From positions 1-18,334 of IMG/VR virus record IMGVR_UViG_2651869725_000022: 18,334 nt of DNA; one strand, written 5' to 3'. Source of the DNA: a virus (taxonomy: Duplodnaviria; Heunggongvirae; Uroviricota; Caudoviricetes). The notes under the pieces are model-generated. The model worked only from the letters and a program-made list of their open reading frames with translations, ran no database searches and had not been told where the DNA came from. Made by a program: the position numbers and the translations under genes. Shown here piece after piece: positions 2,814 to 18,334 of this stretch. Every line of letters begins with the position of its first letter. Within the stretch, counting starts at the first letter, position 1.

Positions 2814-3094
2814 TAGTGCCTCAGATGATCAACCAGACGTGCAACGTTGCCTCTGACAGCCACCAGCACGGAAAGAAAAATAGTGTTCGCCACGATAATG
2901 GGCCATGAGGAATGGGGATAAATCCCACAGAGATAGGCCAACGGAACAGCACTGTATGTAACAGTAATCAGCCAGGCTAAACGTGAAACCCAAGGACGAT
3001 GCCGCGAATCACCACGACGATAAAACATCAGAGTAATAACAACACAAGCACATAACAGCGCATTTATAGTTGCTGTCGGGTCATTTAGCTCCAC
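2813..3094 (-). CDS. Small membrane protein of the lysis cassette (holin/antiholin-like)
   Basis: 93 aa with at least two hydrophobic helices (INALLCACVVITLMF; IIVANTIFLSVLVAV). Lies between the putative holin and the endolysin, with start/stop overlaps on both sides. Confidence 0.45.
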   Translation of the reverse strand: MELNDPTATINALLCACVVITLMFYRRGDSRHRPWVSRLAWLITVTYSAVPLAYLCGIYPHSSWPIIVANTIFLSVLVAVRGNVARLVDHLRH

Positions 3095-3467
3095 CTGAAC
3101 CTCCCCGGCGCGTTATGAGCGCCACCAGCGAGCCGATATCCTGATTATTCAGGAACGTCAGGATTTTAACGGCTAAAGCAGAGACGATTACGGCACCAAT
3201 AGCATCCAGAGGTTTATCACTGTATCCGGTCAAGTTCGCCAGCTTGGAGCCAACCAACCCAGAGCAAAGAATCCCGGCAATATATGACACGATAAAATAT
3301 GCCAGTCGGCGCGATGCACTCAGATCTGCAGCTGTTGCTATGTAGAATACAGCCCCTGCAAATGCGCCAAATACAACGCCGTAATCAGTTCCGGTCAGCA
3401 GTCCATAAACACTGGCACCCGTCAGGGCACCACCAGCCAGCCCAGTACCGGAAATCGGATCGGACAT
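3081..3467 (-). CDS. Putative holin (Gly-rich multi-pass membrane protein)
   Basis: 128 aa, Gly/Ala-rich hydrophobic segments. First gene of the lysis cassette, with a GAGGGGG RBS 5 nt upstream of the ATG at 3467. Confidence 0.5.
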   Translation of the reverse strand: MSDPISGTGLAGGALTGASVYGLLTGTDYGVVFGAFAGAVFYIATAADLSASRRLAYFIVSYIAGILCSGLVGSKLANLTGYSDKPLDAIGAVIVSALAVKILTFLNNQDIGSLVALITRRGGSGGAK

Positions 3468-7380: not shown

Positions 7381-8030
7381 GCCGCCATCTCCCTGACCAG
7401 TTTTTCCGCCTGCTGGCGAACCTGCGCCAGAAACGCCTCACCACATACCTCAAGTTCATCGCGCCCGATGTAGCTGATTGCCGGTCCCTTCCAGGTCTTA
7501 TCGAAAACAGCAATAGCACCAGCGAAGAAAGCGCCTGTCGGCACCTGCTTCTCATCCTTCGGGATAAACCAGGCAGGCAGTTCAAAACCAATACGCCCGC
7601 GAATAAAAGCAATATGGTCTGCATCTTCCGGCCACCACACTTCGCTGGTGGCAGCTTTGATCAGGAAAACATAGCGCCCACCCTTATCACGCATAGCACT
7701 GGCATGTTTCATGATGTAACGCATGCCGGTGATGTATTGCCCCTCATGCTGACTGGCGCGGCTGTATGGGGGATTACCAAAGGCAGCCCCTTTAAGCTCC
7801 GCAAGACGTTCTGACCAGTCATGCGCCAGCGCGTTGTCTTCCGCCGTGTAATACGCAGCACATTTGGCGTTATCACCGTCAGTGAACAGATCCAGAACAA
7901 ACGGGCCAAACAGGGTGTTAATTCCCCAGAAAATGTTGTCCGGCGTGCGCCACTGATCGCCCACTTCCTTCAGTTCATGGGCTGGTTTGTTCCGCAGCTC
8001 CACCAGCGCCCGGCAATATTTATTACTCAT
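7377..8030 (-). CDS. Phage DNA N6-adenine methyltransferase (Dam-like)
   Basis: Preferred start at 8030 (MSNKYC...), overlapping the upstream stop as TAATG. Contains the catalytic NPPY motif (FGNPPYSR) typical of N6-adenine/N4-cytosine methyltransferases. Confidence 0.7.
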   Translation of the reverse strand: MSNKYCRALVELRNKPAHELKEVGDQWRTPDNIFWGINTLFGPFVLDLFTDGDNAKCAAYYTAEDNALAHDWSERLAELKGAAFGNPPYSRASQHEGQYITGMRYIMKHASAMRDKGGRYVFLIKAATSEVWWPEDADHIAFIRGRIGFELPAWFIPKDEKQVPTGAFFAGAIAVFDKTWKGPAISYIGRDELEVCGEAFLAQVRQQAEKLVREMAA

Positions 8031-8524
8031 TAAGCCCCCACGTAATTCCCTGACAGATACCACTCTTCACCCGATGCAGCGCGCTTGCTGCTTTTCCGTA
8101 AGCACCGCTCACGATGCGCCAGAAAATTGTTTCGTTCTGGCTGGGAGTGGCTTTCACGGAATGCCGCCATCCACACGGTTGCAGCACGACGAAATAAGCC
8201 TCTTGACTCCAGTTCTTCAGCCTGGCGGGTCAGGCACAAAATCACCCGGGGATCGTTAGTGCCGACATAGAAATTGCGCACAGGTCTGGTTTCACGAACT
8301 GGTTGTGGTTCCGGCTCCCGCGCTCTCTCAGTCAGGCGCGGGAAATGTCTGCGTGTATCCCCTTCACAACGGTGAGCCACAGGCCCACTCTGACGTAACT
8401 TGCTTGCTGACTGCAGTACGCGCTGCCGTGAGTAACCTGCAAAAGCATCCGCAATGTCTCCGGAAGTACACCCCGGATGGGCTTCAATGAATTTCTGAAC
8501 GTCATTCAAAAGACTCATGATCAC
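8030..8524 (-). CDS. Putative transcriptional regulator (PerC-like C-terminal motif)
   Basis: 164 aa; the C-terminal LESRGLFRRAATVWMAAF resembles the PerC-family signature as I recall it. Translationally coupled to the O-like gene (4-bp overlap) and the Dam gene. Family call is tentative. Confidence 0.4.
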   Translation of the reverse strand: MIMSLLNDVQKFIEAHPGCTSGDIADAFAGYSRQRVLQSASKLRQSGPVAHRCEGDTRRHFPRLTERAREPEPQPVRETRPVRNFYVGTNDPRVILCLTRQAEELESRGLFRRAATVWMAAFRESHSQPERNNFLAHRERCLRKSSKRAASGEEWYLSGNYVGA

Positions 8525-9462
8525 CCCCTGAATCCTGCCGGGATCTGGCTGTAGTCCACGTTGTCGTAACTGGATTTGAAGTACGGGTCTTCGCGTTTTT
8601 CGGTGTACGTGCTGACGGACGGCGATAAGCGCAGGGAAAGCTCATCCCATTTTTCCCGCAGCTTCGACGGGCTGAGCACGTTACGGCACCAGAACGGATC
8701 GCGGCTGACGCGGCTGTACATCTCGCAGATTTGTTTGTGAGTACGACCATCCTGCACACACATCAGGCGAATTTCGTTTGCCCAGGCTGTCCAGTTCGGT
8801 TCTTTGGGACGAACCACCTCGCCGTCACATTCGGCAGCCTGCTCGTACAGGGCGATGATTTTTTTCCAGAGCCACTGTGCGCAGGTCAAATCATCCTGCG
8901 TCCCCCACTGGCGCTTTTTAGGGCTGAATACAACCGCATCAGGATGGCGAGTTAAAAAATCCTGTTCAGCCGTCTGCGTGTCCGGTTGCGAAGCGTCCGG
9001 ACGAGAAGGTTTTTTATCTGACGGATCATGTTTTGATTTTACTGACGGATCCCCGCCAGATTCTGACGGGTGAAAACCCGCTTTTTTGCCAGATTTCGAC
9101 GCATCAAATTTTGACGGGTCAGATTTTGATGCGTCAGATTTTGACGGGTCAGAATCTGACAGTTGAGAAAATGCCGCTGCCTGAAGCTTCGCAACGTTAA
9201 GCTGATAAACATTCGACGCATTGCGGTTACCCTGGCGACGCGCCTTACGCGTTAACCAGCCTTCTGCTTCCAGCCGTGCGATAGCCGTTCTGACGGTACT
9301 CATCCCCGCGCCAATCTGACGGGCAATGGTTTCAATTGATGGCCAGCACACACCTTCGTCATTACTGAAATCAGCCAGGCGGGCCATAATTGCCACGCTG
9401 GATAACTTCATGCCTGATGCAGCGCAACCATCCCATACATAGCCGGTTAATTTAGTGCTCAT
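8521..9462 (-). CDS. Replication initiator, lambda O-like (HTH N-terminal domain, iteron-encoded linker, O-type C-terminal domain)
   Basis: 313 aa. The C-terminal segment (WGTQDDLTCAQW...NWTAWANEIRLMCVQDGRTHKQICEMYSRVSRDPFWCRNVLSPSKLREKWDELS) closely parallels the lambda O C-terminal domain (WGTAEDLTAAEW...NFAGWANDIRLMRERDGRNHRDMCVLFRWACQDNFWSGNVLSPAKLRDKWTQLE) from memory. The central low-complexity SDSDPSKSDASKSDPSKFDASKSG is encoded by direct repeats. Confidence 0.8.
   Translation of the reverse strand: MSTKLTGYVWDGCAASGMKLSSVAIMARLADFSNDEGVCWPSIETIARQIGAGMSTVRTAIARLEAEGWLTRKARRQGNRNASNVYQLNVAKLQAAAFSQLSDSDPSKSDASKSDPSKFDASKSGKKAGFHPSESGGDPSVKSKHDPSDKKPSRPDASQPDTQTAEQDFLTRHPDAVVFSPKKRQWGTQDDLTCAQWLWKKIIALYEQAAECDGEVVRPKEPNWTAWANEIRLMCVQDGRTHKQICEMYSRVSRDPFWCRNVLSPSKLREKWDELSLRLSPSVSTYTEKREDPYFKSSYDNVDYSQIPAGFRG
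9016..9162. repeat. Iteron array (candidate replication origin) inside the O-like gene
   Basis: At least eight copies of a T(C/T)TGAC(G/A)G core; the last five are spaced at exactly 15 bp (cores at 9096, 9111, 9126, 9141, 9156; unit approx GTCAGATTTTGACGG), with further copies at 9018, 9042 and 9063. Moderately AT-rich stretch on the 3' side (8940-9015). Mirrors ori-lambda architecture within O. Confidence 0.6.
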
Positions 9463-9471
9463 GACCGACCT

Positions 9472-9810
9472 CTATTTCCCTGAATTTACGACGAAACTGT
9501 TCGAGCGGGCTGAAGCACTCATGCTCATAGCCTTCGCGGAGGTAGATAACTCGTTGTGTTTCCGGCTCCCAACGAATGACTCTGACGGGCACTCCGTAGT
9601 GATCTTTGAACCAGCGGTTAACTTGTCGCAAAGGACTGTCTCCTTCTGCCGGTTGAAATCACCCACAGCCCACTCAGCAAAGCTGTGGGTTACAATTTCC
9701 CTGTCACCTGGTACATTTACTGCATAGCAATACTCCACCTTCGCTTTTCCACCCGGTACAGGAAGCGCAATCAGTTGCGAGCGACGGTAGTGTGTTGTTA
9801 AACTGTTCAT
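9472..9810 (-). CDS. Hypothetical protein (112 aa), translationally coupled
   Basis: ATG at 9810 overlaps the upstream stop (ATGA) and has GGAG 9 nt upstream. No family recognised. An antisense ORF (9455-9727, plus strand) occupies the same DNA, so the coding strand is not fully certain. Confidence 0.35.
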
Positions 9811-10358
9811 GCGTTAGTTTCTCCACAGTCACGACACGCCACGGCGCCCGGAGCTGCACACTCGCGGGCGTCACTACTTTCTGAAACGCAAAAGATTTTG
9901 TAGACCAGTGCTGCATGCTCCTGCAGCTTCGAAATTGAGAGGTACAGCTCATCGTTAATTGCTGTCTTCTCATGCGGTTCCACTACACCGTCTTCAATTG
10001 CTGAACGAATCTGTTTTGAATAACTGCCGATCTGTTCAATGACTTCCAGCAGGCGTTGGTTGATATCGGCGTTGTCCACATCCTCGACGTCAGGAAGAGA
10101 CACAAAGACGCCATTTGCAGACTGCGCCACAGCATCAGCAATGAAGTGAGTGCCACCAGCACGCTGTAAAACCATTGCCCATCCCAGCGGGAAAATCTGA
10201 TCGCCATCTGCACGAAGGCGGTTGAATAAAGCGTTTTCTGTTACATCGAGCCAGTCAGCCGCTTCAGCGTAACCACCCGGCAACGCCGCGATAGTTTTTC
10301 TGACAGCTTTCACATACCACTTAGGCTGTTTTTCTACTTTCCAGTGATGCTTACCCAC
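9807..10358 (-). CDS. CII-like regulatory protein with extended C-terminal domain
   Basis: Preferred start is the GTG at 10358 (AAGGAG 6 nt upstream); the longer ORF to 10463 would overlap cro. The segment [39 protein letters not shown] parallels the lambda CII HTH region (TEKTAEAVGVDKSQISRWKRDWIPKFSMLLAVLE) from memory. Sits between cro and O as cII does. Confidence 0.45.
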
Positions 10359-10380
10359 GGCTATCTCCTTAAAACTGTGG

Positions 10381-10629
10381 TTACTTTTCATCTGATGAAT
10401 CTTTAATCTTTTGAAAAATATCTGGACGTAATTTTTCTTTTGATATGCCAGTGGTCTTTTCAATGAATATCGAGAGCTTTGCAGGGGGACGCTTTTCTCT
10501 GTTCAACCAGTTCCAGACATGTTGTTGCTTTACTAAATGACCGCTGCTGGCTGTGAGCTTCCGAGCCAATTCTGATTGACCACCAGCCAGAGCGATTGCC
10601 TCCGATAAGGCTAATTGCTCAGGTGTCAT
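10381..10629 (-). CDS. Cro-like repressor (YdaS/Cro-type HTH)
   Basis: 82 aa, divergent from the cI-like gene across a 135-bp operator region; AAGGAG RBS 6 nt upstream of the ATG. HTH-like segment LSEAIALAGGQSELARKLTASSGHLVKQ. Confidence 0.6.
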   Translation of the reverse strand: MTPEQLALSEAIALAGGQSELARKLTASSGHLVKQQHVWNWLNREKRPPAKLSIFIEKTTGISKEKLRPDIFQKIKDSSDEK

Positions 10630-10764
10630 AGCTTTCTCCTTTTTAGGTAGTTAAGTTGTTACGAGTTGCAAGAATACAACATTAACAACTTTTATCACAA
10701 CTTTTAGGTGTTGGAAAGCTAAAACATAAAGTTGTAACCTCACCAAAAAAGAGAGGGATATGTT
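10630..10764. promoter_or_regulatory. Divergent operator/promoter region (OR analogue; pR towards cro, pRM towards cI)
   Basis: Intergenic region between divergent cro-like and cI-like genes. It carries at least five copies of the half-site AAGTTGT / ACAACTT (for example TTAAGTTGTTAC, TTAACAACTTTT, ATCACAACTTTT, AAAGTTGTAACC); the same motif recurs at the pL candidate. Confidence 0.55.
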
Positions 10765-11451
10765 GTGAAAACACTGGCAGAACGATTAAAGATAGGTAGA
10801 GAGAAAGCTGGCATGAGCCAAGCTCAACTAGCTGAAAAAATTGGACTTTCACAACAATCTGTAGCCAAAATAGAGAATGGCGAAACTCTACAACCGCGCA
10901 AAATTAAAGAAATTGCAAAAGTTTTAGGTGTATCACAAAAGTGGTTACAACTTGGTATTGAAGACAACGCATCCATACCTGATCTTGTTGTAAAAGAAGC
11001 AGAAAGCACCGCATTAGACCCCGATATTTTCGTAAACATCCCTGTTTTAGATGTCGAGTTATCGGCAGGTAATGGATGTCTGGCTGAAATAGTTGAATCA
11101 GCTATTGACTGGTTTCCGTTAAGAAGAGCAGATTTGAGAAAATCTGGCGTATGTGCATCTAATGCCAAGATCGTAAAAATATGGGGGAACAGTTTATTAC
11201 CGGTTCTCAATAATGGAGATCTTGTTGCCGTTGATATTTCTCAAACCGTTCCTATTCGTGATGGCGATCTTTATGCCATACGAGATGGTGTATTGCTAAG
11301 GGTTAAAATACTTATCAACTTACCTGACGGTGGCTTGATTCTTAGAAGCTTCAACAAAGATGAGTACCCAGATGAAATACTCACCTTTGAAGATAGACGA
11401 GCCAGAATTCATGTTATAGGTAGGGTATTCTGGTCATCGCGAACTTGGTAA
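10765..11451 (+). CDS. cI-type prophage repressor (HTH-XRE N-terminal domain plus S24 LexA-like autopeptidase domain)
   Basis: 228 aa starting at GTG 10765 (purine-rich RBS upstream). N-terminal HTH (MSQAQLAEKIGLSQQSVAKIENGE), candidate Ala-Gly cleavage site (LSAGNG), catalytic Ser (GNSL) and Lys (LRVK) in S24 arrangement. Confidence 0.85.
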   Translation: MKTLAERLKIGREKAGMSQAQLAEKIGLSQQSVAKIENGETLQPRKIKEIAKVLGVSQKWLQLGIEDNASIPDLVVKEAESTALDPDIFVNIPVLDVELSAGNGCLAEIVESAIDWFPLRRADLRKSGVCASNAKIVKIWGNSLLPVLNNGDLVAVDISQTVPIRDGDLYAIRDGVLLRVKILINLPDGGLILRSFNKDEYPDEILTFEDRRARIHVIGRVFWSSRTW

Positions 11452-12324
11452 TGCATCGAAAAGCATTTCTTCAGAAATAATTTTAAGTTTTGCACCATTA
11501 TCATCCCTATAAGATATAGCTTTTTCGATCTTCCTTCCGTGACTTGAGAATTTCCAATCACGGGAGGAAAGCGTCCCAATTACTAAAAAATCCAACTTTT
11601 GAGTAATTCCACTACTGATGTTCCCACCAGCATTTTTAATCAAATTTTCAACTACGGCTCTCTTTCCTGCAACAAAAGTGCCTGTAAGACAATAGGTTTT
11701 ACCCTCTAACTCTATCGAAGCCCCTACATCAATAGGCAGCCTGGTCGCCAAACCATCCACCACCCCACTTTCCAAGTCACATCCTGTGAAGTCTACTAAT
11801 GCCTTATGTAGAGTTAAACTCTCATCTTCAGTAATAACACCATCTTTAAGAATTTCCTTTACAAGTGCATAAAGTTTTTTTCCTGGGTAGTTGTTCTTCA
11901 AAGCTCCATTTTGCTCAAGCCACCAATTAAGATATCTTATTTCTTCTTGAGTTAAGTTCCGATCAGCAATTAATCCTTTACATAGTCCATTAAGTAAATG
12001 GACATCTACATCCTTGGAGTAAAAATCAATTTCAGGGATATCAAGAATTTCCCTCTGTATTTGGAGAAGGCTATTTTTAAGGTCATCACGTTCTTCTGAT
12101 GTGATTATTCCATCCGCAAGAATATCCGACACCCGTGCTGATAGACTTTTTATAACTCCATTATTGATAATCTGCTTTGCTTCAAGTAACCATGTATCTA
12201 AGTAAAGAACCTCCTCTTCACGGACAACTCCATCTGCAATGATTCCATCAATGATGCTAATCAAGTTAGCAAATAACTTGTCCCGGTTCTGTGTGTAATT
12301 AAAAGCGTAAAGCGCGTCTTCCAT
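11434..12324 (-). CDS. Accessory protein: four TerB-like helical repeats followed by a C-terminal BRCT domain
   Basis: 296 aa; GGAGG RBS 4 nt upstream of the ATG at 12324. Four repeats built on an acidic core (IADGVVREEEVLYL; LADGIITSEERDDL; IADRNLTQEEIRYL; LKDGVITEDESLTL). The C-terminal GKTYCLTGTF...GGNISSGITQKLDFLVIG...ISEEMLFDAL matches the BRCT pattern as seen in NAD-dependent ligase C-termini. AT-rich, convergent with cI and overlapping its 3' end by 18 bp. Confidence 0.65.
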   Translation of the reverse strand: MEDALYAFNYTQNRDKLFANLISIIDGIIADGVVREEEVLYLDTWLLEAKQIINNGVIKSLSARVSDILADGIITSEERDDLKNSLLQIQREILDIPEIDFYSKDVDVHLLNGLCKGLIADRNLTQEEIRYLNWWLEQNGALKNNYPGKKLYALVKEILKDGVITEDESLTLHKALVDFTGCDLESGVVDGLATRLPIDVGASIELEGKTYCLTGTFVAGKRAVVENLIKNAGGNISSGITQKLDFLVIGTLSSRDWKFSSHGRKIEKAISYRDDNGAKLKIISEEMLFDALPSSR

Positions 12325-12380
12325 ACAACCTCCTTTTTTGATAATCCTTGCACTCCTTGGCTACTCGTTCAAACCACATA

Positions 12381-12430
12381 AAGTTGTTGACAACATTCAA
12401 AACCACAATTAAATTACAACTTAAAGGTGT
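12381..12430 (+). promoter_or_regulatory. pL-like early-left promoter with operator half-sites (OL analogue)
   Basis: TTGACA at 12387-12392, 17-bp spacer, TAAATT at 12410-12415. It overlaps the imperfect palindrome AAAGTTGTTGACAACATT and a further ACAACTT copy, the same half-site as in the OR region. Confidence 0.45.
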
Positions 12431-12525
12431 TAAAACGACGAACAGGCAGGACGCCCACGAAGTAGCCGCCGGTGGCGTATGAATGACCGGATGATTCGTT
12501 AAATACTATGTGTAAGAGAGCGCAA

Positions 12526-12729
12526 ATGAACCGTTATTTCACATGCTCGTTTTGTGGCGCAAACGAGCTGCAGGCAAAAAAAATCATCGCCAAAGGCGGA
12601 AAAGATGAAGTTGCTATCTGCTCTGAGTGCGTAGTCTTGTGTGTCGGGGCATTAATCAATATCAGCACAACTATTCAGTTCACACCAAATGAGAATGCGC
12701 CTTTAGATGCGCGGAAATCTGGAGGTTAA
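12526..12729 (+). CDS. Small protein with ClpX-type C4 zinc-finger (ClpX N-domain-like)
   Basis: Preferred start is the ATG at 12526 (MNRYFTCSFCG...). CSFCGANELQAKKIIAKGGKDEVAICSECVVLC parallels the ClpX zinc-binding domain ([30 protein letters not shown]) from memory. First gene downstream of the pL candidate. Confidence 0.55.
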   Translation: MNRYFTCSFCGANELQAKKIIAKGGKDEVAICSECVVLCVGALINISTTIQFTPNENAPLDARKSGG

Positions 12730-12737
12730 AGAACAAA

Positions 12738-13013
12738 ATGAAAGTCCAGATTTTAAACAATAGTGGTGAAGTCGTTTGGTCATACGACATAGCCGCTCCT
12801 GTAGATCAGAGCGGCGATAGCTGGACCAATGGGAAACATCAGATTATGGCTGGAGTTGTATTCTCTTTACGCCGTGCTTTGGAACAGGCTGAAGTATTTC
12901 CATCAGACCCTGAATGGAAATGGCCTTTTTCTATTTGTCCAAATTCGGAGAGTACATTTCAGAAAATTGGTCAGAAAGTCGCACTCGAAGAGCATCAGCC
13001 AACTGTTTCCTGA
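12738..13013 (+). CDS. Hypothetical protein (91 aa)
   Basis: GGAGG RBS 9 nt upstream of the ATG. No family recognised. Its 3' end overlaps the convergent minus-strand ORF by about 83 bp. Confidence 0.4.
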   Translation: MKVQILNNSGEVVWSYDIAAPVDQSGDSWTNGKHQIMAGVVFSLRRALEQAEVFPSDPEWKWPFSICPNSESTFQKIGQKVALEEHQPTVS

Positions 13014-13176
13014 TTTTTTCAGGTAGCTCGTCGGCATCGCAGAAACAACAACGCTCGATCATGTTGAAAGCCGATTCGTAGAACTGTTTCTGCTGAGTGT
13101 CGCTGAGACAGGAAAAGAGCGACGTTACGATGATTTTATTAATTGCATTATCAAGTTCTTTTTCATCAAAAGTCAT
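12931..13176 (-). CDS. Hypothetical protein (81 aa), antisense-oriented within the early-left operon
   Basis: AGGA RBS about 7 nt upstream of the ATG at 13176. Helical-looking sequence with a CCFC motif. Convergent with and overlapping the 91-aa ORF. Confidence 0.4.
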   Translation of the reverse strand: MTFDEKELDNAINKIIVTSLFSCLSDTQQKQFYESAFNMIERCCFCDADELPEKIRKQLADALRVRLSDQFSEMYSPNLDK

Positions 13177-13430
13177 TTGATTTTCCTTTTATGTATACGG
13201 ACTTAAAAGGATACCACCGAGCCTGAAGTGGTGAAAAGACAGGCACATAACAGCTAAGTATTTTCAACCAGAGAGAATCCTTAGCGTTGTGGTGAATGCG
13301 GCTCAGCGCACGCGGGTTAAGGTTGAGGCTGACAGTCGACCTTCTGTGGATACCCACCCGCCAGGTGTGCAACCTTCGCCAGGCACCGGGAGGCACCCGG
13401 CACCACAACTTTATGCTGTGTGTAGTCTTG

Positions 13431-13478
13431 GCGGTACCAGCTTGTACCCTTGCTTCCGGCTGGTACCGCTCTTTTTAC
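13431..13478 (+). terminator. Candidate intrinsic terminator inside the early-left operon (tL-like)
   Basis: Perfect 11-bp stem GCGGTACCAGC (13431-13441) / GCTGGTACCGC (13459-13469) with a 17-nt loop, followed by CTCTTTTTAC. The loop is large for a canonical terminator, hence moderate confidence. Confidence 0.45.
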
Positions 13479-13613
13479 AAAACAGAGAAGAGCATCACCG
13501 GACGACGGGCTCATAACCCAATCCACCCGGGCGGCTGCCACCGCAGGTGTTCTTCTCTGTTTTGTGGAGAAACCAACCGACCTTGCAGGGTCGATATGAT
13601 TAGGAGCAGCAAA

Positions 13614-14048
13614 ATGGCTAGCGAACGCAGTACTGATGTGCAGGCATTTATCGGGGAGCTGGACGGCGGCGTATTTGAAACCAAAATCGGCGCAGTTCTC
13701 AGTGAAGTCGCTTCCGGTGTGATGAACACGAAAACCAAAGGTAAGGTCTCACTCAACCTGGAAATCGAACCGTTTGATGAGAACCGTGTGAAAATCAAAC
13801 ACAAACTCTCATATGTTCGCCCGACTAACCGCGGGAAAATTTCCGAAGAAGACACCACCGAAACGCCGATGTATGTCAATCGCGGTGGTCGCCCGACTAA
13901 CCGCGGGAAAATTTCCGAAGAAGACACCACCGAAACGCCGATGTATGTCAATCGCGGTGGTCGCCTGACTATTCTGCAGGAAGACCAGGGACAATTACTG
14001 ACTCTTGCCGGTGAACCTGACGGAAAACTCCGCGCAGCAGGTCATTAA
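13614..14048 (+). CDS. Hypothetical protein (144 aa) containing a duplicated 24-aa segment
   Basis: Preferred start is the ATG at 13614 with AGGAG 7 nt upstream; the upstream part of the long ORF 13296-14048 is GC-rich and lacks an RBS. Contains the tandem repeat PTNRGKISEEDTTETPMYVNRGGR twice. Confidence 0.55.
   Translation: MASERSTDVQAFIGELDGGVFETKIGAVLSEVASGVMNTKTKGKVSLNLEIEPFDENRVKIKHKLSYVRPTNRGKISEEDTTETPMYVNRGGRPTNRGKISEEDTTETPMYVNRGGRLTILQEDQGQLLTLAGEPDGKLRAAGH
13821..13964. repeat. Perfect 72-bp tandem duplication (2 copies) inside the coding sequence
   Basis: Copy 1 at 13821-13892 and copy 2 at 13893-13964 are identical base for base. A degenerate partial third start (GCCTGACTATTC) follows. 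Confidence 0.9.
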
Positions 14049-14113
14049 TATCGTTCTTAATTAACTGATTATTTATCTCATCACTGAATATCTTTATATA
14101 GTGAGGACTTATT

Positions 14114-14938
14114 ATGTCTCAGAACTTAGACGCAACCGCAATTAATCAAATCCATGCTCTTATTTCTGCTCAGGGTGTTAATGAAATTATCAGTAAGATT
14201 GGTGCCGATGCTGTGGCATTGCCTGAGAATTTCCGCATTCATGATCTGGAAAAATTTAATTTAAATCGCTTCCGTTTCCGTGGTGCGCTTTCCACTGCCA
14301 GCATCGATGACTTTACCCGTTATTCTAAAGATCTTGCAGATGAAGGCACCCGCTGCTTTATCGATGCCGATAATATGCGAGCCGTCAGTGTGCTTAACCT
14401 GGGTACTATTGATGAACCAGGTCACGCAGATAACACCGCCACTCTCAAACTGAAAAAGACAGCACCGTTCTCTGCTCTGTTGTCTGTTAATGGCGAGCGT
14501 AACTCCCAGAAGTCACTGGCAGAATGGATTGAAGACTGGGCCGACTACCTTGTGGGCTTTGATGCTAATGGTGACGCCATTCAGGCAACCAAAGCGGCTG
14601 CGGCGATCCGTAAAATCACAATTGAAGCGAACCAGACCGCTGATTTTGAAGATAATGACTTCAGCGGCAAACGCTCCCTGATGGAGTCTGTCGAAGCGAA
14701 GACCAAAGACATTATGCCAGTGGCATTTGAATTTAAATGCGTTCCGTTTGAAGGTCTGAAAGAACGTCCGTTTAAATTACGCCTCAGCATTATCACTGGC
14801 GATCGTCCTGTACTGGTTCTGCGCATTATTCAGCTGGAAGCGGTGCAGGAAGAAATGGCTAACGAATTTCGTGATCTGCTTGTTGAGAAATTCAAAGACA
14901 GCAAAGTAGAAACCTTTATTGGTACTTTCACCGCCTGA
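14114..14938 (+). CDS. YfdQ-like (DUF2303-type) prophage protein
   Basis: 274 aa with an AGTGAGGA RBS. Length and gene neighbourhood (followed by an HD-domain YfdR-like gene and a 120-aa YfdS-like gene) match the CPS-53-type yfdQ-yfdR-yfdS block as I recall it. Family call is from memory. Confidence 0.5.
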
Positions 14939-15065
14939 TTTCATTACTGCAAATGCCCCTGCGGGGGCATTTATGGAAACGTAATTTACTCAATAATCGC
15001 CGGATGGTGATGGATTCTTTTTACCAGAATTCAGCGCGGTGCAGCGCATATACGTGGAGAACAAA

Positions 15066-15602
15066 ATGTCATTTATCAAAACTTTTTCTGGGAAGCATTT
15101 TTATTATGACAGGATAAATAAAGACGACATCGATATTAACGATATCGCGGTTTCCCTTTCAAATATCTGTCGCTTTGCCGGTCATCTTTCGCACTTCTAC
15201 AGCGTCGCCCAACATGCGGTTCTTTGCAGCCAGCTGGTGCCGCAGGAATTTGCTTTTGAAGCGTTAATGCATGATGCAACAGAAGCGTATTGCCAGGACA
15301 TTCCCGCACCACTGAAACGCCTTCTTCCTGACTATAAACGGATGGAAGAAAAAATAGACGCCGTAATCCGTGAGAAATACGGGTTACCACCGGTTATGAG
15401 TACGCCCGTGAAATATGCCGATCTCATCATGCTGGCAACCGAACGCCGCGATCTCGGGCTTGATGATGGCTCTTTCTGGCCTGTACTGGAAGGTAGCCCG
15501 GCAACAGAGATGTTCAACGTGATTCCACTGGCTCCAGGCCATGCCTACGGGATGTTTATGGAACGCTTTAACGAATTATCGGAGTTACGCAAATGCGCAT
15601 GA
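15066..15602 (+). CDS. HD-domain phosphohydrolase (YfdR-like 5'-deoxynucleotidase)
   Basis: Preferred start MSFIKTF at 15066 (178 aa). HD-domain His...His-Asp pattern (AQHAVLCS ... ALMHDATEAY) and a later Asp consistent with metal-dependent phosphohydrolases. Confidence 0.6.
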   Translation: MSFIKTFSGKHFYYDRINKDDIDINDIAVSLSNICRFAGHLSHFYSVAQHAVLCSQLVPQEFAFEALMHDATEAYCQDIPAPLKRLLPDYKRMEEKIDAVIREKYGLPPVMSTPVKYADLIMLATERRDLGLDDGSFWPVLEGSPATEMFNVIPLAPGHAYGMFMERFNELSELRKCA

Positions 15603-15955
15603 ATGTTTTCGAAATGGAAGGATTTCTTCGCGGGAAATGTGTACCGCGAGATCTGAAAGTGAATGAAACGGATGCTGAATACCTGGTGCGTAAATTTGAT
15701 GCGCTTGAAGCTAAATGTGCAGCACTGGAAAACAAAGTAATACCAGTGTCAGCTGAACTGCCGCCAGCGAATGAAAGTGTTCTGTTATTTGATGCTAATG
15801 GAGAAGGCTGGCTGATTGGCTGGCGTTCTCTCTGGTATACATGGGGGCAAAAAGAAACCGGAGAATGGCAGTGGACATTTCAGGTCGGGGACATTGAAAA
15901 CGTCAACATCACTCACTGGGCAGTAATGCCAAAAGCACCGGAGGCTGGAGCATAA
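15593..15955 (+). CDS. YfdS-like (DUF551-type) protein
   Basis: 120 aa; start overlaps the upstream stop. C-terminal Trp-rich segment (WLIGWRSLWYTWGQKETGEWQW). Call based on size and synteny. Confidence 0.45.
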   Translation: MRMNVFEMEGFLRGKCVPRDLKVNETDAEYLVRKFDALEAKCAALENKVIPVSAELPPANESVLLFDANGEGWLIGWRSLWYTWGQKETGEWQWTFQVGDIENVNITHWAVMPKAPEAGA

Positions 15956-16764
15956 TGACCACATTTACCGATAAAGAACTGATTAAAGAAATCAAAGAAC
16001 GAATCAGCAGCATGGACGTGCGAGACAATGTTGAGCGCCGTGCTTATGAAATTGCTCTGGCATCGCTGGAAGAGGATCCGGTGGCATGGCTGCATTCAGA
16101 CAATGGCTTAGGTATTCCGGCAATAACCAGGAGTAAAAACATTGCTGACAGTTGGTTATCAAAGGGCTGGTATGTTCAGCCGCTATATATAGCCAAGCCA
16201 GTGCCGGTGGTGCCAGATGCTCGTCCGTCTTTAAATAATGGCATAGTCGGTTTTGATGAAGGCTGGAACGCCTGCCGCGCTGCCATGCTCTATGGTGCCG
16301 TACCTGCAAGCCAGGCTTACAAGTTGCCACAAACGCAGTTTAAACAGGTTGCTGACCTCTACGAAATGCAATTTGATGACGGTCGCACTTGTGCCTTTCA
16401 CACTGATGCGCAAAAGGCTGTGCAATGGCTTCAGGCGTGCGACGGAAACAGGGTTCAGGAATACGTTAAGCTGGAACGATTGCAGAACGCACTGTCTGGC
16501 AACTCTCCGGTAACTCCGGATGGTTGGGTTATGGTGCCGAAGAGACTAACAGCCGAGAACGGCGCTAAGGGGGCGCTATCCGGTGAATTTTCAGAAACTA
16601 CGTTTATAAGCTGCCTGGAATGCTTTGGCGATGATGATTGCGATACCTGTGACGGGAGCGGACGTATTGAAATTAAAGTGCCAGTCACGTGGTCGACCAT
16701 AAAATCTATCTGGGATAAAGGTATCGAGTATTTTGCAGCAAAACCATCACAAGAGGTGAAGTGA
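15955..16764 (+). CDS. Hypothetical protein with C-terminal Cys cluster (putative zinc ribbon)
   Basis: 269 aa; start overlaps the previous stop (TAATG). C-terminal CLECFGDDDCDTCDGSG. Confidence 0.45.
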   Translation: MTTFTDKELIKEIKERISSMDVRDNVERRAYEIALASLEEDPVAWLHSDNGLGIPAITRSKNIADSWLSKGWYVQPLYIAKPVPVVPDARPSLNNGIVGFDEGWNACRAAMLYGAVPASQAYKLPQTQFKQVADLYEMQFDDGRTCAFHTDAQKAVQWLQACDGNRVQEYVKLERLQNALSGNSPVTPDGWVMVPKRLTAENGAKGALSGEFSETTFISCLECFGDDDCDTCDGSGRIEIKVPVTWSTIKSIWDKGIEYFAAKPSQEVK

Positions 16765-17336
16765 TGAACAACTTAATGATCGACCTTGAGACGATGGGGA
16801 AAAATAAGGATGCACCGATCGTTTCCATTGGCGCGGTGTTCTTCACTCCAGAAACCGGAGACATCGGACAAGAATTCTATACGGTTGTTAGCCTGGAAAG
16901 TGCTATGGGGCAAGGAGCTACACCTGACGGCGATACCATCCTGTGGTGGTTGAAACAAAGCCCTGAAGCACGAGCTGCAATCTGTATTGATGATACTTTG
17001 TCGATCAGCGATGCTCTCTCAGAACTAAATCATTTCATTAACCGGCACGCAGACAATACGAAATATTTAAAAGTCTGGGGTAACGGAGCCACCTTCGACA
17101 ACGTAATTTTACGTGGAGCTTATGAGCGAGCAGGACAAATCTGCCCGTGGGCATACTGGAATGACCACGATGTACGCACGATCGTTACGCTTGGGCGTTC
17201 CATCGGATTCGACCCCAAAATGGACATGCCTTTCGATGGCGAACGGCACAACGCCCTGGCTGATGCCCGTCATCAGGCAAAATATGTTTCCGCTATCTGG
17301 CAGAAATTAATTCCTGCCACCAGCACAGAATTATGA
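16761..17336 (+). CDS. 3'-5' exonuclease, DEDD (DnaQ-like) family
   Basis: 191 aa; N-terminal MIDLETMG (Exo I motif with Asp/Glu), central WGNGATFDNVIL and C-terminal HNALADARHQAKY (Exo III His-x4-Asp) fit a DEDDh exonuclease. Confidence 0.6.
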   Translation: MMNNLMIDLETMGKNKDAPIVSIGAVFFTPETGDIGQEFYTVVSLESAMGQGATPDGDTILWWLKQSPEARAAICIDDTLSISDALSELNHFINRHADNTKYLKVWGNGATFDNVILRGAYERAGQICPWAYWNDHDVRTIVTLGRSIGFDPKMDMPFDGERHNALADARHQAKYVSAIWQKLIPATSTEL

Positions 17337-17372
17337 TTTTCCCGGGTGCAGCCGGTTTTGATGGAGAAAATT

Positions 17373-17654
17373 ATGAACACCTTGTTTTTACTGATGGCTG
17401 AATTCAATACCCCTAACATTGAACTCTCAGCAGTTAGCCAAAAGTACTTTGGCATGAGTCCAGCCACGGCAGAAGCAAAAGCAAACGCTTGTAAGTTGCC
17501 CGTTCCAACATATCGCATCGGCACATCACAAAAAGCAAAACGTTGCATCAATATTCAGGATCTTGCGGAATACATAGACAAAAGACGAGAAGAAGGACGT
17601 ATCGAGTGGGAACAGGTCAGAACAAGCAAACAGAAGGGCAAAGAACATCACTAA
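17373..17654 (+). CDS. Small DNA-binding protein, excisionase-like (PrtN/Xis-type)
   Basis: Preferred start at 17373 (GGAGAAAA RBS). The segment KLPVPTYRIGTSQKAKRCINIQDLAEYIDKRRE resembles winged-helix excisionase/PrtN-type proteins as I recall them. Last gene of the plus-strand operon, followed by a terminator. Tentative. Confidence 0.4.
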   Translation: MNTLFLLMAEFNTPNIELSAVSQKYFGMSPATAEAKANACKLPVPTYRIGTSQKAKRCINIQDLAEYIDKRREEGRIEWEQVRTSKQKGKEHH

Positions 17655-17660
17655 ATAAAA

Positions 17661-17690
17661 AACCCGCCTAAAGGCGGGTTTTCAAAAAGC
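17661..17690. terminator. Bidirectional intrinsic terminator between convergent genes
   Basis: AACCCGCC-taaa-GGCGGGTT hairpin, flanked by an A-run upstream and TTTCAAAAA downstream, so it can serve both strands. Confidence 0.6.
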
Positions 17691-17701
17691 ACCAGCTATG
17701 A

Positions 17702-17875
17702 TCATGCTGCTTTGCGACGACGAAGCTTACCCTGCTGCTCTTTACCAGAGACAGTAGCGTGAGTGAACGCATTAGGAGCAGCCTTCATCAGAACTTCAAC
17801 AGCAGCACCCATACCTGCGAATGCTTTCATTGTGTCGAACTTAACCTGTGGCTTGGTTGCTTTTTGATCTTCCAT
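17702..17875 (-). CDS. Small hypothetical protein (57 aa), absent from the supplied ORF track
   Basis: Hand translation of the minus strand gives MEDQKATKPQVKFDTMKAFAGMGAAVEVLMKAAPNAFTHATVSGKEQQGKLRRRKAA, with AGGAG 7 nt upstream of the ATG at 17875 and a stop at 17702-17704 next to the bidirectional terminator. Confidence 0.4.
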   Translation of the reverse strand: MEDQKATKPQVKFDTMKAFAGMGAAVEVLMKAAPNAFTHATVSGKEQQGKLRRRKAA

Positions 17876-17914
17876 AGAAAACTCCTGAAGTTATACCGAA
17901 ACAATTCCTGTTGT

Positions 17915-18334
17915 TTACTCATCATCAATAGATGATACGCAATATTTATTTTTAAATTTAAGGTTCTTTGGCGTAACTTCATCAGAGATATCAAAACCGT
18001 CCAGAATTCTATTGAATGTAGCTTCTGGCATATCATCATGAACAGAAATCTCACCCGATCGCTGCTTTCTAACCATGTTATCCACTCGCCAAATTATAGC
18101 TTCAGCGTAAACAACATAACTTGGATGCTTGATAAAGCGATGATCACCAGAATTCAAGACGCAAGACGGATCGTGGGGGACACCATCCTTGATACTAGAA
18201 ATATTAACAACTAAAACACAATAACAATCGTTAACGGGGTAATAAACAGGATCATTACAAATCACATGAAGATGATTGCATGGCCCAGTTGGGGCAAGCA
18301 CAGTTCCTTTCCTGTATGGCTGATAATCCGTCAT
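17915..18334 (-). CDS. Hypothetical protein (at least 139 aa; ATG coincides with the window end, may extend further)
   Basis: ORF on the minus strand in a visibly AT-rich region. Cys/His-rich (CNHLHVICNDP, CYC). No family recognised. Confidence 0.35.
   Translation of the reverse strand: MTDYQPYRKGTVLAPTGPCNHLHVICNDPVYYPVNDCYCVLVVNISSIKDGVPHDPSCVLNSGDHRFIKHPSYVVYAEAIIWRVDNMVRKQRSGEISVHDDMPEATFNRILDGFDISDEVTPKNLKFKNKYCVSSIDDE

Follow-up and report, generated by a model that had tools for sequence, protein, structure and literature searches.

An in-frame 72-bp tandem duplication in the prophage gene yfdP of Escherichia coli, probably formed by slippage between short direct repeats

Here, we have analysed 18,334 nucleotides of Caudoviricetes DNA (IMG/VR record IMGVR_UViG_2651869725_000022; the whole stretch is called the window below) and argue that the yfdP gene in it very probably carries a 72-bp tandem duplication that is genuine, in frame and restricted to a lineage, and that arose by slippage. 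Slipped-strand mispairing is the mechanism that we infer from the product, the event itself being unseen. The duplication is an ordinary mutation and holds no surprise for the specialist, and the allele is already public as the RefSeq hypothetical protein WP_028126010.1. The features on which the argument rests are collected in Table 1.

Table 1. Features of the yfdP region, in window coordinates (a slash marks the point of joining, here and in the text)
Feature	Position	Strand	Remarks
yfdP coding sequence, 144-aa allele	13614-14048	+	Equal to WP_028126010.1, stop included; the normal allele is 120 aa
Shine-Dalgarno-like AGGAG	13602-13606	+	7 nt upstream of the yfdP ATG; read from the sequence
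72-bp unit, copy 1	13821-13892	+	Encodes P70-R93; equal to copy 2; Tandem Repeats Finder
72-bp unit, copy 2	13893-13964	+	Encodes P94-R117; extra relative to all single-copy relatives
Left microhomology TCGCCCGACTA	13817-13827	+	TCGCC is 13817-13821
Right microhomology TCGCCTGACTA	13961-13971	+	10 of 11 bases equal to the left microhomology
Novel junction TCGCC/CGACTA from the duplication	13889-13899	+	
yfdQ (DUF2303), downstream operon partner, unaltered	14114-14938	+	Pfam PF10065, E 6e-93

An earlier note on this DNA had described two equal 72-bp copies lying head to tail and in frame, so that 24 amino acids are doubled in a protein of 144. Direct comparison within the window bears this out: all 72 bases of the two copies are equal, and the copies are contiguous with zero filler between them. 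Tandem Repeats Finder reports an array at 13817-13971 with a period of 72, 2.2 copies and a score of 303. The identity at period 72 is extended by 4 bp on the left and by 1 bp on the right, giving a repeated tract of 13817-13965, and the boundary of the unit is ambiguous by the 5-bp TCGCC. The repeat is in frame within the open reading frame at 13614-14048 (144 aa plus stop), the translation of which holds PTNRGKISEEDTTETPMYVNRGGR twice. A perfect tandem copy of 72 bp cannot be the work of chance. The diagnostic 26-mer of the duplication, taken at 13880-13905 with the junction sequence TCGCGGTGGTCGCCCGACTAACCGCG, occurs once in the window and in none of 200 shuffles.

That the altered gene is yfdP came from its relatives. 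When one 24-aa copy is removed, the window protein equals the 120-aa WP_000135680.1, annotated in relatives by RefSeq as 'protein YfdP'. The exact 144-aa protein carries a precomputed assignment to Pfam PF27127, as do all its homologues, the best of which matches with an E-value of 4.7e-79, and its PHROGs class is phrog_204, of unknown function. A local Pfam scan of the 144-aa protein returned no family; the recent PF27127 model is apparently not in that copy of the database. Members of the YfdP family are 120-123 aa long and have one conserved motif (P-T-x-R-G-K...E-T-P-M-x-V-N-R-G-G), and the 144-aa protein departs from this norm in having the motif twice. It is a mutant allele of a YfdP family member and not a separate family. 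Compared with YfdP of K-12 CPS-53/KpLE1 and its orthologues (SfV orf32, mEp460 and the Stx2 phages), its sequence is the same bar the doubled 24 aa. The gene also occupies the same place as the CPS-53/KpLE1-type genes (PF27127, PHROG 204), in the early-left operon upstream of yfdQ and yfdR, whereas its product has 144 aa with P70-R93 twice against 120-123 aa in that type.

In the window, yfdP sits in the early-left operon of a lambdoid prophage, downstream of a cI-like S24 repressor (10765-11451), and is followed by yfdQ and by genes for a yfdR-like HD protein, a DUF551 protein, a 269-aa protein, an Rv2179c-like 3'-5' exonuclease and a PrtN-like protein. The order of yfdP, directly followed by yfdQ and then by the yfdR-like gene, is the same in strains IR53017 and MS1679. 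The opposite strand of the prophage carries replication, Q-like antiterminator, lysis and terminase genes, and the prophage adjoins zur-yjbJ-dinF-lexA. It has been reported that K-12 yfdPQ is an operon bound by SrsR (PMC9181523) and that the effect of YfdQRST on DnaA did not require yfdP (PMC4776307). A function for YfdP was not found in the literature, and fold searches with YfdP gave no usable functional lead. At gathering scores, Rfam found nothing over the whole window and hence no RNA element in the repeat. Scanning 12300-14200 for promoters and terminators gave matches at chance level only; two weak 'terminators' on the minus strand, at 13871 and 13943, are one and the same piece of the unit, met in each copy.

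We would like to point out that a longer reading frame of 250 aa (13296-14048), in the frame of yfdP, was considered and rejected, as it is merely a stop-free upstream run and relatives start yfdP at the ATG at 13614. The stretch of about 300 bp upstream of yfdP (13289-13613, plus strand) is open in the yfdP frame, which yields this spurious frame, and it is annotated in relatives as a frameshifted pseudogene of a hypothetical protein. Two database entries named 'YfdP' (P0036 and P0049 in our set) are this upstream frame fused to a truncated yfdP.

The exact 144-aa protein WP_028126010.1 is encoded on two NCBI draft contigs. One of them, JHSH01000028.1 (L001), has 0 mismatches to the window in 14,721 bp compared and, by this identity, is apparently the source of the window or its twin. 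The other, JICE01000057.1 (L002), differs from the window by 15 SNPs in 10,544 bp, and for this reason represents an independent data set from a distinguishable strain. It comes from S6400, a typical EPEC strain of serogroup O119, phylogroup B2 and the EPEC4 lineage from Kenya, for which HiSeq 2000 paired ends were read and Velvet was the assembler (PMC4056304). The copies of S6400 agree at 71 of 72 bases: copy 2 has TCT where copy 1 has TCC, a synonymous difference at window position 13916. The description of the duplication as base-perfect in the earlier note is thus right for the window, with 72 of 72, but does not extend to every carrier. Of the 15 differences between the window (and JHSH01000028.1) and JICE01000057.1, 8 crowd into about 200 bp at window 7680-7884, an open reading frame region that annotation of relatives assigns to a phage N-6-adenine methyltransferase; their clustering in the compared sequences points to a small patch of recombination, or to paralogues collapsed in one of the assemblies.

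The S6400 contig stops 109 bp past yfdP, just inside yfdQ. Partial YfdP proteins at contig ends number in the hundreds in the database, and one 70-aa fragment lies on 575 contigs. Contigs end at yfdP/yfdQ because many genomes have these genes in several copies, at up to 5 places each.

Compared among related prophages, as the earlier note had envisaged, the 72-bp unit is not duplicated in any collection scanned outside the two draft carriers. Among 5,426 complete E. coli genomes, 2,508 carry yfdP at about 3,000-3,200 places (up to 5 per genome). The yfdP matches listed from complete genomes each span 479 bp, not 551, which corresponds to one copy, and a 60-mer across the duplication junction has no match in the 5,426 genomes. 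All 46 phage records with yfdP have a single copy. The junction 26-mer is missing from GTDB representative genomes, from IMG/VR and from JGI metagenomes; as a positive control, the wild-type boundary was found on at least 120 IMG/VR contigs. Of 120 IMG/VR loci that were fetched, 114 hold a full-length, ungapped, single-copy gene, the other loci being cut off. Orthologues of YfdP across Enterobacterales have 120-123 aa and one copy, and among 134 representatives of the family an internal repeat is found in the query only. An ancient internal repeat of the family was likewise considered and is ruled out by the presence of one copy in all 81 aligned homologues.

In the closest complete genome, E. 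coli MS1679 (NZ_CP097719.1), this arm of the prophage is found at the identical chromosomal position, beside zur-yjbJ-dinF. When one 72-bp copy is taken out, window 9401-18334 aligns with MS1679 ungapped, with 12 mismatches in 8,862 bp. The sole difference within yfdP is then a third-codon site, which is T in MS1679. This site is a standing C/T polymorphism: the unit with T is matched at 72 of 72 bases in 184 complete-genome records, and the 114 IMG/VR loci have C in 106 cases and T in 8. The states are C,C in the two copies of the window, C,T in those of S6400 and T in MS1679, which require one more event beyond the duplication, a mutation or a gene conversion, in either order. In the same comparison, the Rv2179c-like 3'-5' exonuclease gene (16761-17336, plus strand) is intact in the window and has an internal stop in MS1679, the G/T difference at 16914 being its only mismatch.

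How the duplication could have been formed is suggested by the single-copy alleles. In IR53017 and MS1679, the segment that corresponds to the unit is bounded by direct repeats spaced exactly 72 bp apart, which agree at 5 of 5 bases as TCGCC and at 10 of 11 as TCGCCYGACTA. The junction created by the duplication lies inside the TCGCC of the TCGCCCGACTA/TCGCCTGACTA pair, and as it reads TCGCC/CGACTA, the switch took place within TCGCC. If breakpoints were random, a boundary ambiguity of at least 5 bp would be expected with a probability of about 0.005 by our own calculation, as the sum over k>=5 of (k+1)(1/4)^k(3/4)^2.

We argue that the ancestral yfdP held the two near-identical 11-mers, TCGCCCGACTA and TCGCCTGACTA, 72 bp apart. 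During replication, a nascent strand on which the second TCGCC had just been copied would slip back and pair again with the first TCGCC, so that the 72 intervening bases would be copied once more by slipped-strand mispairing, for which RecA would not be needed. The product would be the 144-aa YfdP that repeats residues P70-R93. This allele could then have reached at least two E. coli strains of EPEC type by inheritance or transfer, and the copies of one carrier would later have diverged at a site where yfdP alleles are polymorphic.

Slipped-strand mispairing is a classic route to spontaneous deletions and tandem duplications in E. coli, and it reportedly acts between short direct repeats, such as those at the hot spots of lacI. 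The duplication in yfdP shows no essential difference from the products of this route: the copies are head to tail, the breakpoints lie in an ancestral short repeat, and the reciprocal deletion exists. A DNA hairpin that might aid slippage was looked for by folding 13805-13905, which gave -13.4 kcal/mol (z -0.42 against shuffles), that is, no special structure.

The reciprocal deletion is found in 96-aa alleles that lack exactly the 24 aa, with the joint at SYVR/LTILQ in two of them (P0070 and P0071) and at SYVRPT/ILQ in a third (P0065). At the nucleotide level, the deletion junction is GTTCGCC/TGACTATT in one locus (L005, Logan SRR17735669) and GTTCGCCCGACTA/TTCTG in another (L006, ERR3581980). 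Since the two have different crossover points in the same pair of 11-mers and different allelic backgrounds, at least two independent deletions have occurred. The deletion, of which the 28-mers are CATATGTTCGCC, then C or T, then GACTATTCTGCAGGA, is rare as well: its junction is missing from IMG/VR, from JGI metagenomes and from the 5,426 complete genomes of E. coli. Slippage thus recurs at the TCGCCYGACTA pair, but at low frequency, and the locus is not hypervariable. As the earlier note had supposed, a change in copy number alters the length of the protein with no frameshift, and alleles of 96, 120 and 144 aa all exist. Its suggestion of a slippage or recombination hotspot agrees with our results as far as slippage is concerned, given the microhomology at the boundaries and the reciprocal deletions at two crossovers, but holds only weakly as to the hotspot, since neither junction is present in any collection scanned.

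Further in-frame deletions of 7, 10, 11, 19 and 29 aa in yfdP are present in public assemblies, at about window 13730-13830; their carriers are P0026, P0030, P0031, P0032, P0037, P0039 and P0048. The 10-aa deletion has three crossover points (SLNL/KIKHK, SLNLEI/KHK and SLNLEIE/HK) and lies between the similar stretches GAAATCGAAC and AAAATCAAAC, which are 30 bp apart. To judge from these sequences, the 10-aa deletions are probably the same slippage phenomenon at a second repeat pair.

Two other origins of the repeat have to be weighed against slippage. The two copies could be an artefact of short-read assembly or of a chimeric library molecule, the real copy number being one or some other, as the earlier note had allowed. 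It is true that the carriers are draft assemblies only, one of them being the Velvet assembly of S6400, that the nearby end of the S6400 contig points to a region that is hard to assemble, that partial YfdP proteins at contig ends show how often yfdP is multicopy, and that a perfect repeat of 2 x 72 bp cannot be counted exactly with short reads. However, the same junction is present in two independent assemblies 15 SNPs apart, and contigs from a de Bruijn assembler hold only k-mers that come from reads, so that the junction could not be invented and must have been in the DNA libraries. Tandem repeats also tend to be collapsed in assembly, not expanded; the copies of S6400 can be told apart by C and T, which speaks against a simple loop artefact; and a biological event would be expected to leave boundaries on microhomology and to have reciprocal deletions, both of which are found here. 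We consequently hold an artefact to be very improbable. What the assemblies prove is the junction; two copies are a lower bound, as HiSeq 2000 reads are probably shorter than the 144-bp span. The other origin is an unequal RecA-dependent exchange, or gene conversion, between yfdP paralogues of different prophages, in which case the C/T difference in S6400 would go back to two parental alleles. Genomes with up to 5 yfdP places would provide the partners, and the S6400 copies do carry both common alleles at the polymorphic site. Minimal processing segments for RecA-mediated exchange are about 20-30 bp, and the homology available out of register, 5 bp perfect or 10 of 11, is far below this need; moreover, the rest of the gene and the 8.9-kb arm have no mosaic pattern around the repeat. 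Such an exchange has, in our estimate, very little chance of being the source of the duplication. Slippage accounts for the boundaries, and the duplication is 'very recent', in the words of the earlier note, in a relative sense only, as the allele is common to assemblies 15 SNPs in 10.5 kb apart and the copies of S6400 are no longer identical.

Whether the length of the protein is under selection is a separate question. It is conceivable that the repeat is of the contingency type, that is, a programmed length variation of which the 144-aa form is adaptive in an EPEC lineage. The in-frame unit takes in the most conserved motif, the allele has been kept in two distinguishable strains though tandem repeats revert easily, and alleles with 0, 1 and 2 copies all exist. 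Against this, neither the duplication nor the deletion is present at any of the roughly 3,000 yfdP loci of complete genomes, there are no matches in IMG/VR, GTDB representatives or JGI metagenomes, the orthologues in Enterobacterales keep to one length class and one copy, no allele with three or more copies was seen, and the predicted model of the duplicated protein loses confidence and forms no extended repeat fold. We regard selected variation as highly unlikely. Like yfdP, contingency or VNTR genes have a unit that is a multiple of three bases and change length without a frameshift. In contrast to them, yfdP has two copies only, nearly the whole population has a single copy, and there is no sign of frequent switching; YfdP is also no surface protein but a small phage protein of cytoplasmic type. 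A copy number that is polymorphic at appreciable frequency, which defines contingency loci, is not what the collections scanned contain. Because such population-level polymorphism was sought and not found, yfdP is not a contingency locus.

The doubled segment is nevertheless not a trivial part of the protein. In an alignment of 81 homologues, residues 70-93 are the most conserved fifth of YfdP, with 12 of its 28 invariant columns and 8 more that are at least 90% conserved. In the AlphaFold prediction for the 120-aa form (pLDDT 73.8), there are a long helix at 9-39 and three long antiparallel strands at 44-55, 58-71 and 74-88, and the segment that is duplicated runs from the end of strand b2 through the turn and strand b3 to include the conserved NRGG loop. 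In the model of the 144-aa form (pLDDT 62.7), copy 1 builds b3, and copy 2 (residues 94-117) together with the conserved LTILQEDQG segment is below pLDDT 50; confidence is moderate to low in both, and such models are unreliable for the effects of mutations. The models would suggest that the extra copy loops out or disturbs the C-terminal LTILQEDQG segment. Most likely, then, the change to 144 aa would be neutral to deleterious, up to full inactivation, for what is an accessory protein. It is extremely unlikely that the 144-aa YfdP is a selected variant with gained or changed function that marks an EPEC sublineage, with the TCGCCYGACTA pair as a low-rate reversible switch between 96, 120 and 144 aa; if it were so, the second copy of the invariant motif could, for example, let the protein bind a partner from host or phage at a second site.

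For annotation, WP_028126010.1 is better read as YfdP with a 24-aa internal duplication, and the import of the finding beyond this is small. It offers a clean natural case of a microhomology-mediated duplication together with its reciprocal deletions, and the duplication could mark the strain or lineage of the two EPEC isolates. The alleles of 96, 120 and 144 aa might also be a natural series for studying the function of YfdP, an uncharacterised and very widespread protein; what makes them handy is that the repeat affects its most conserved part.

The window has some other features that are worth recording. An array with a 15-bp period lies at 9090-9153 within the open reading frame at 8521-9462 (minus strand), a replication-O-like gene (HTH_36, 313 aa). 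Its units, spaced by 15 bp, are TCAAATTTTGA, TCAGATTTTGA, TCAGATTTTGA and TCAGAATCTGA, and in sequence the array looks like the iterons of a lambdoid ori. Three of these four 11-mers are identical to the 'SrsR boxes' footprinted in the yfdO/yfdP spacer of K-12 (PMC9181523), and the fourth is one base off an SrsR box (TCAGAATCTGA against TCAGAgTcTGa). From this likeness, the SrsR site of K-12 may be a remnant of the ori iterons of yfdO, a truncated O gene.

At 11434-12324 (minus strand), the window encodes a 296-aa BRCT-domain protein of phrog_3989, of unknown function. The gene is convergent with that of the cI-like repressor and overlaps its 3' end by 18 bp, and its place, with the repressor on one side and the early-left operon on the other, is moron-like. 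An integrase was not seen on the zur side in JHSH01000028.1, whereas IR53017 has one. At the edge of the prophage beside zur, in window 17915-18334 (minus strand) and positions 14302-15290 of JHSH01000028.1, an open reading frame of 139 aa is followed by a 190-aa protein with a Panacea/SocA domain, and together they may form a toxin-antitoxin pair at the element's end.
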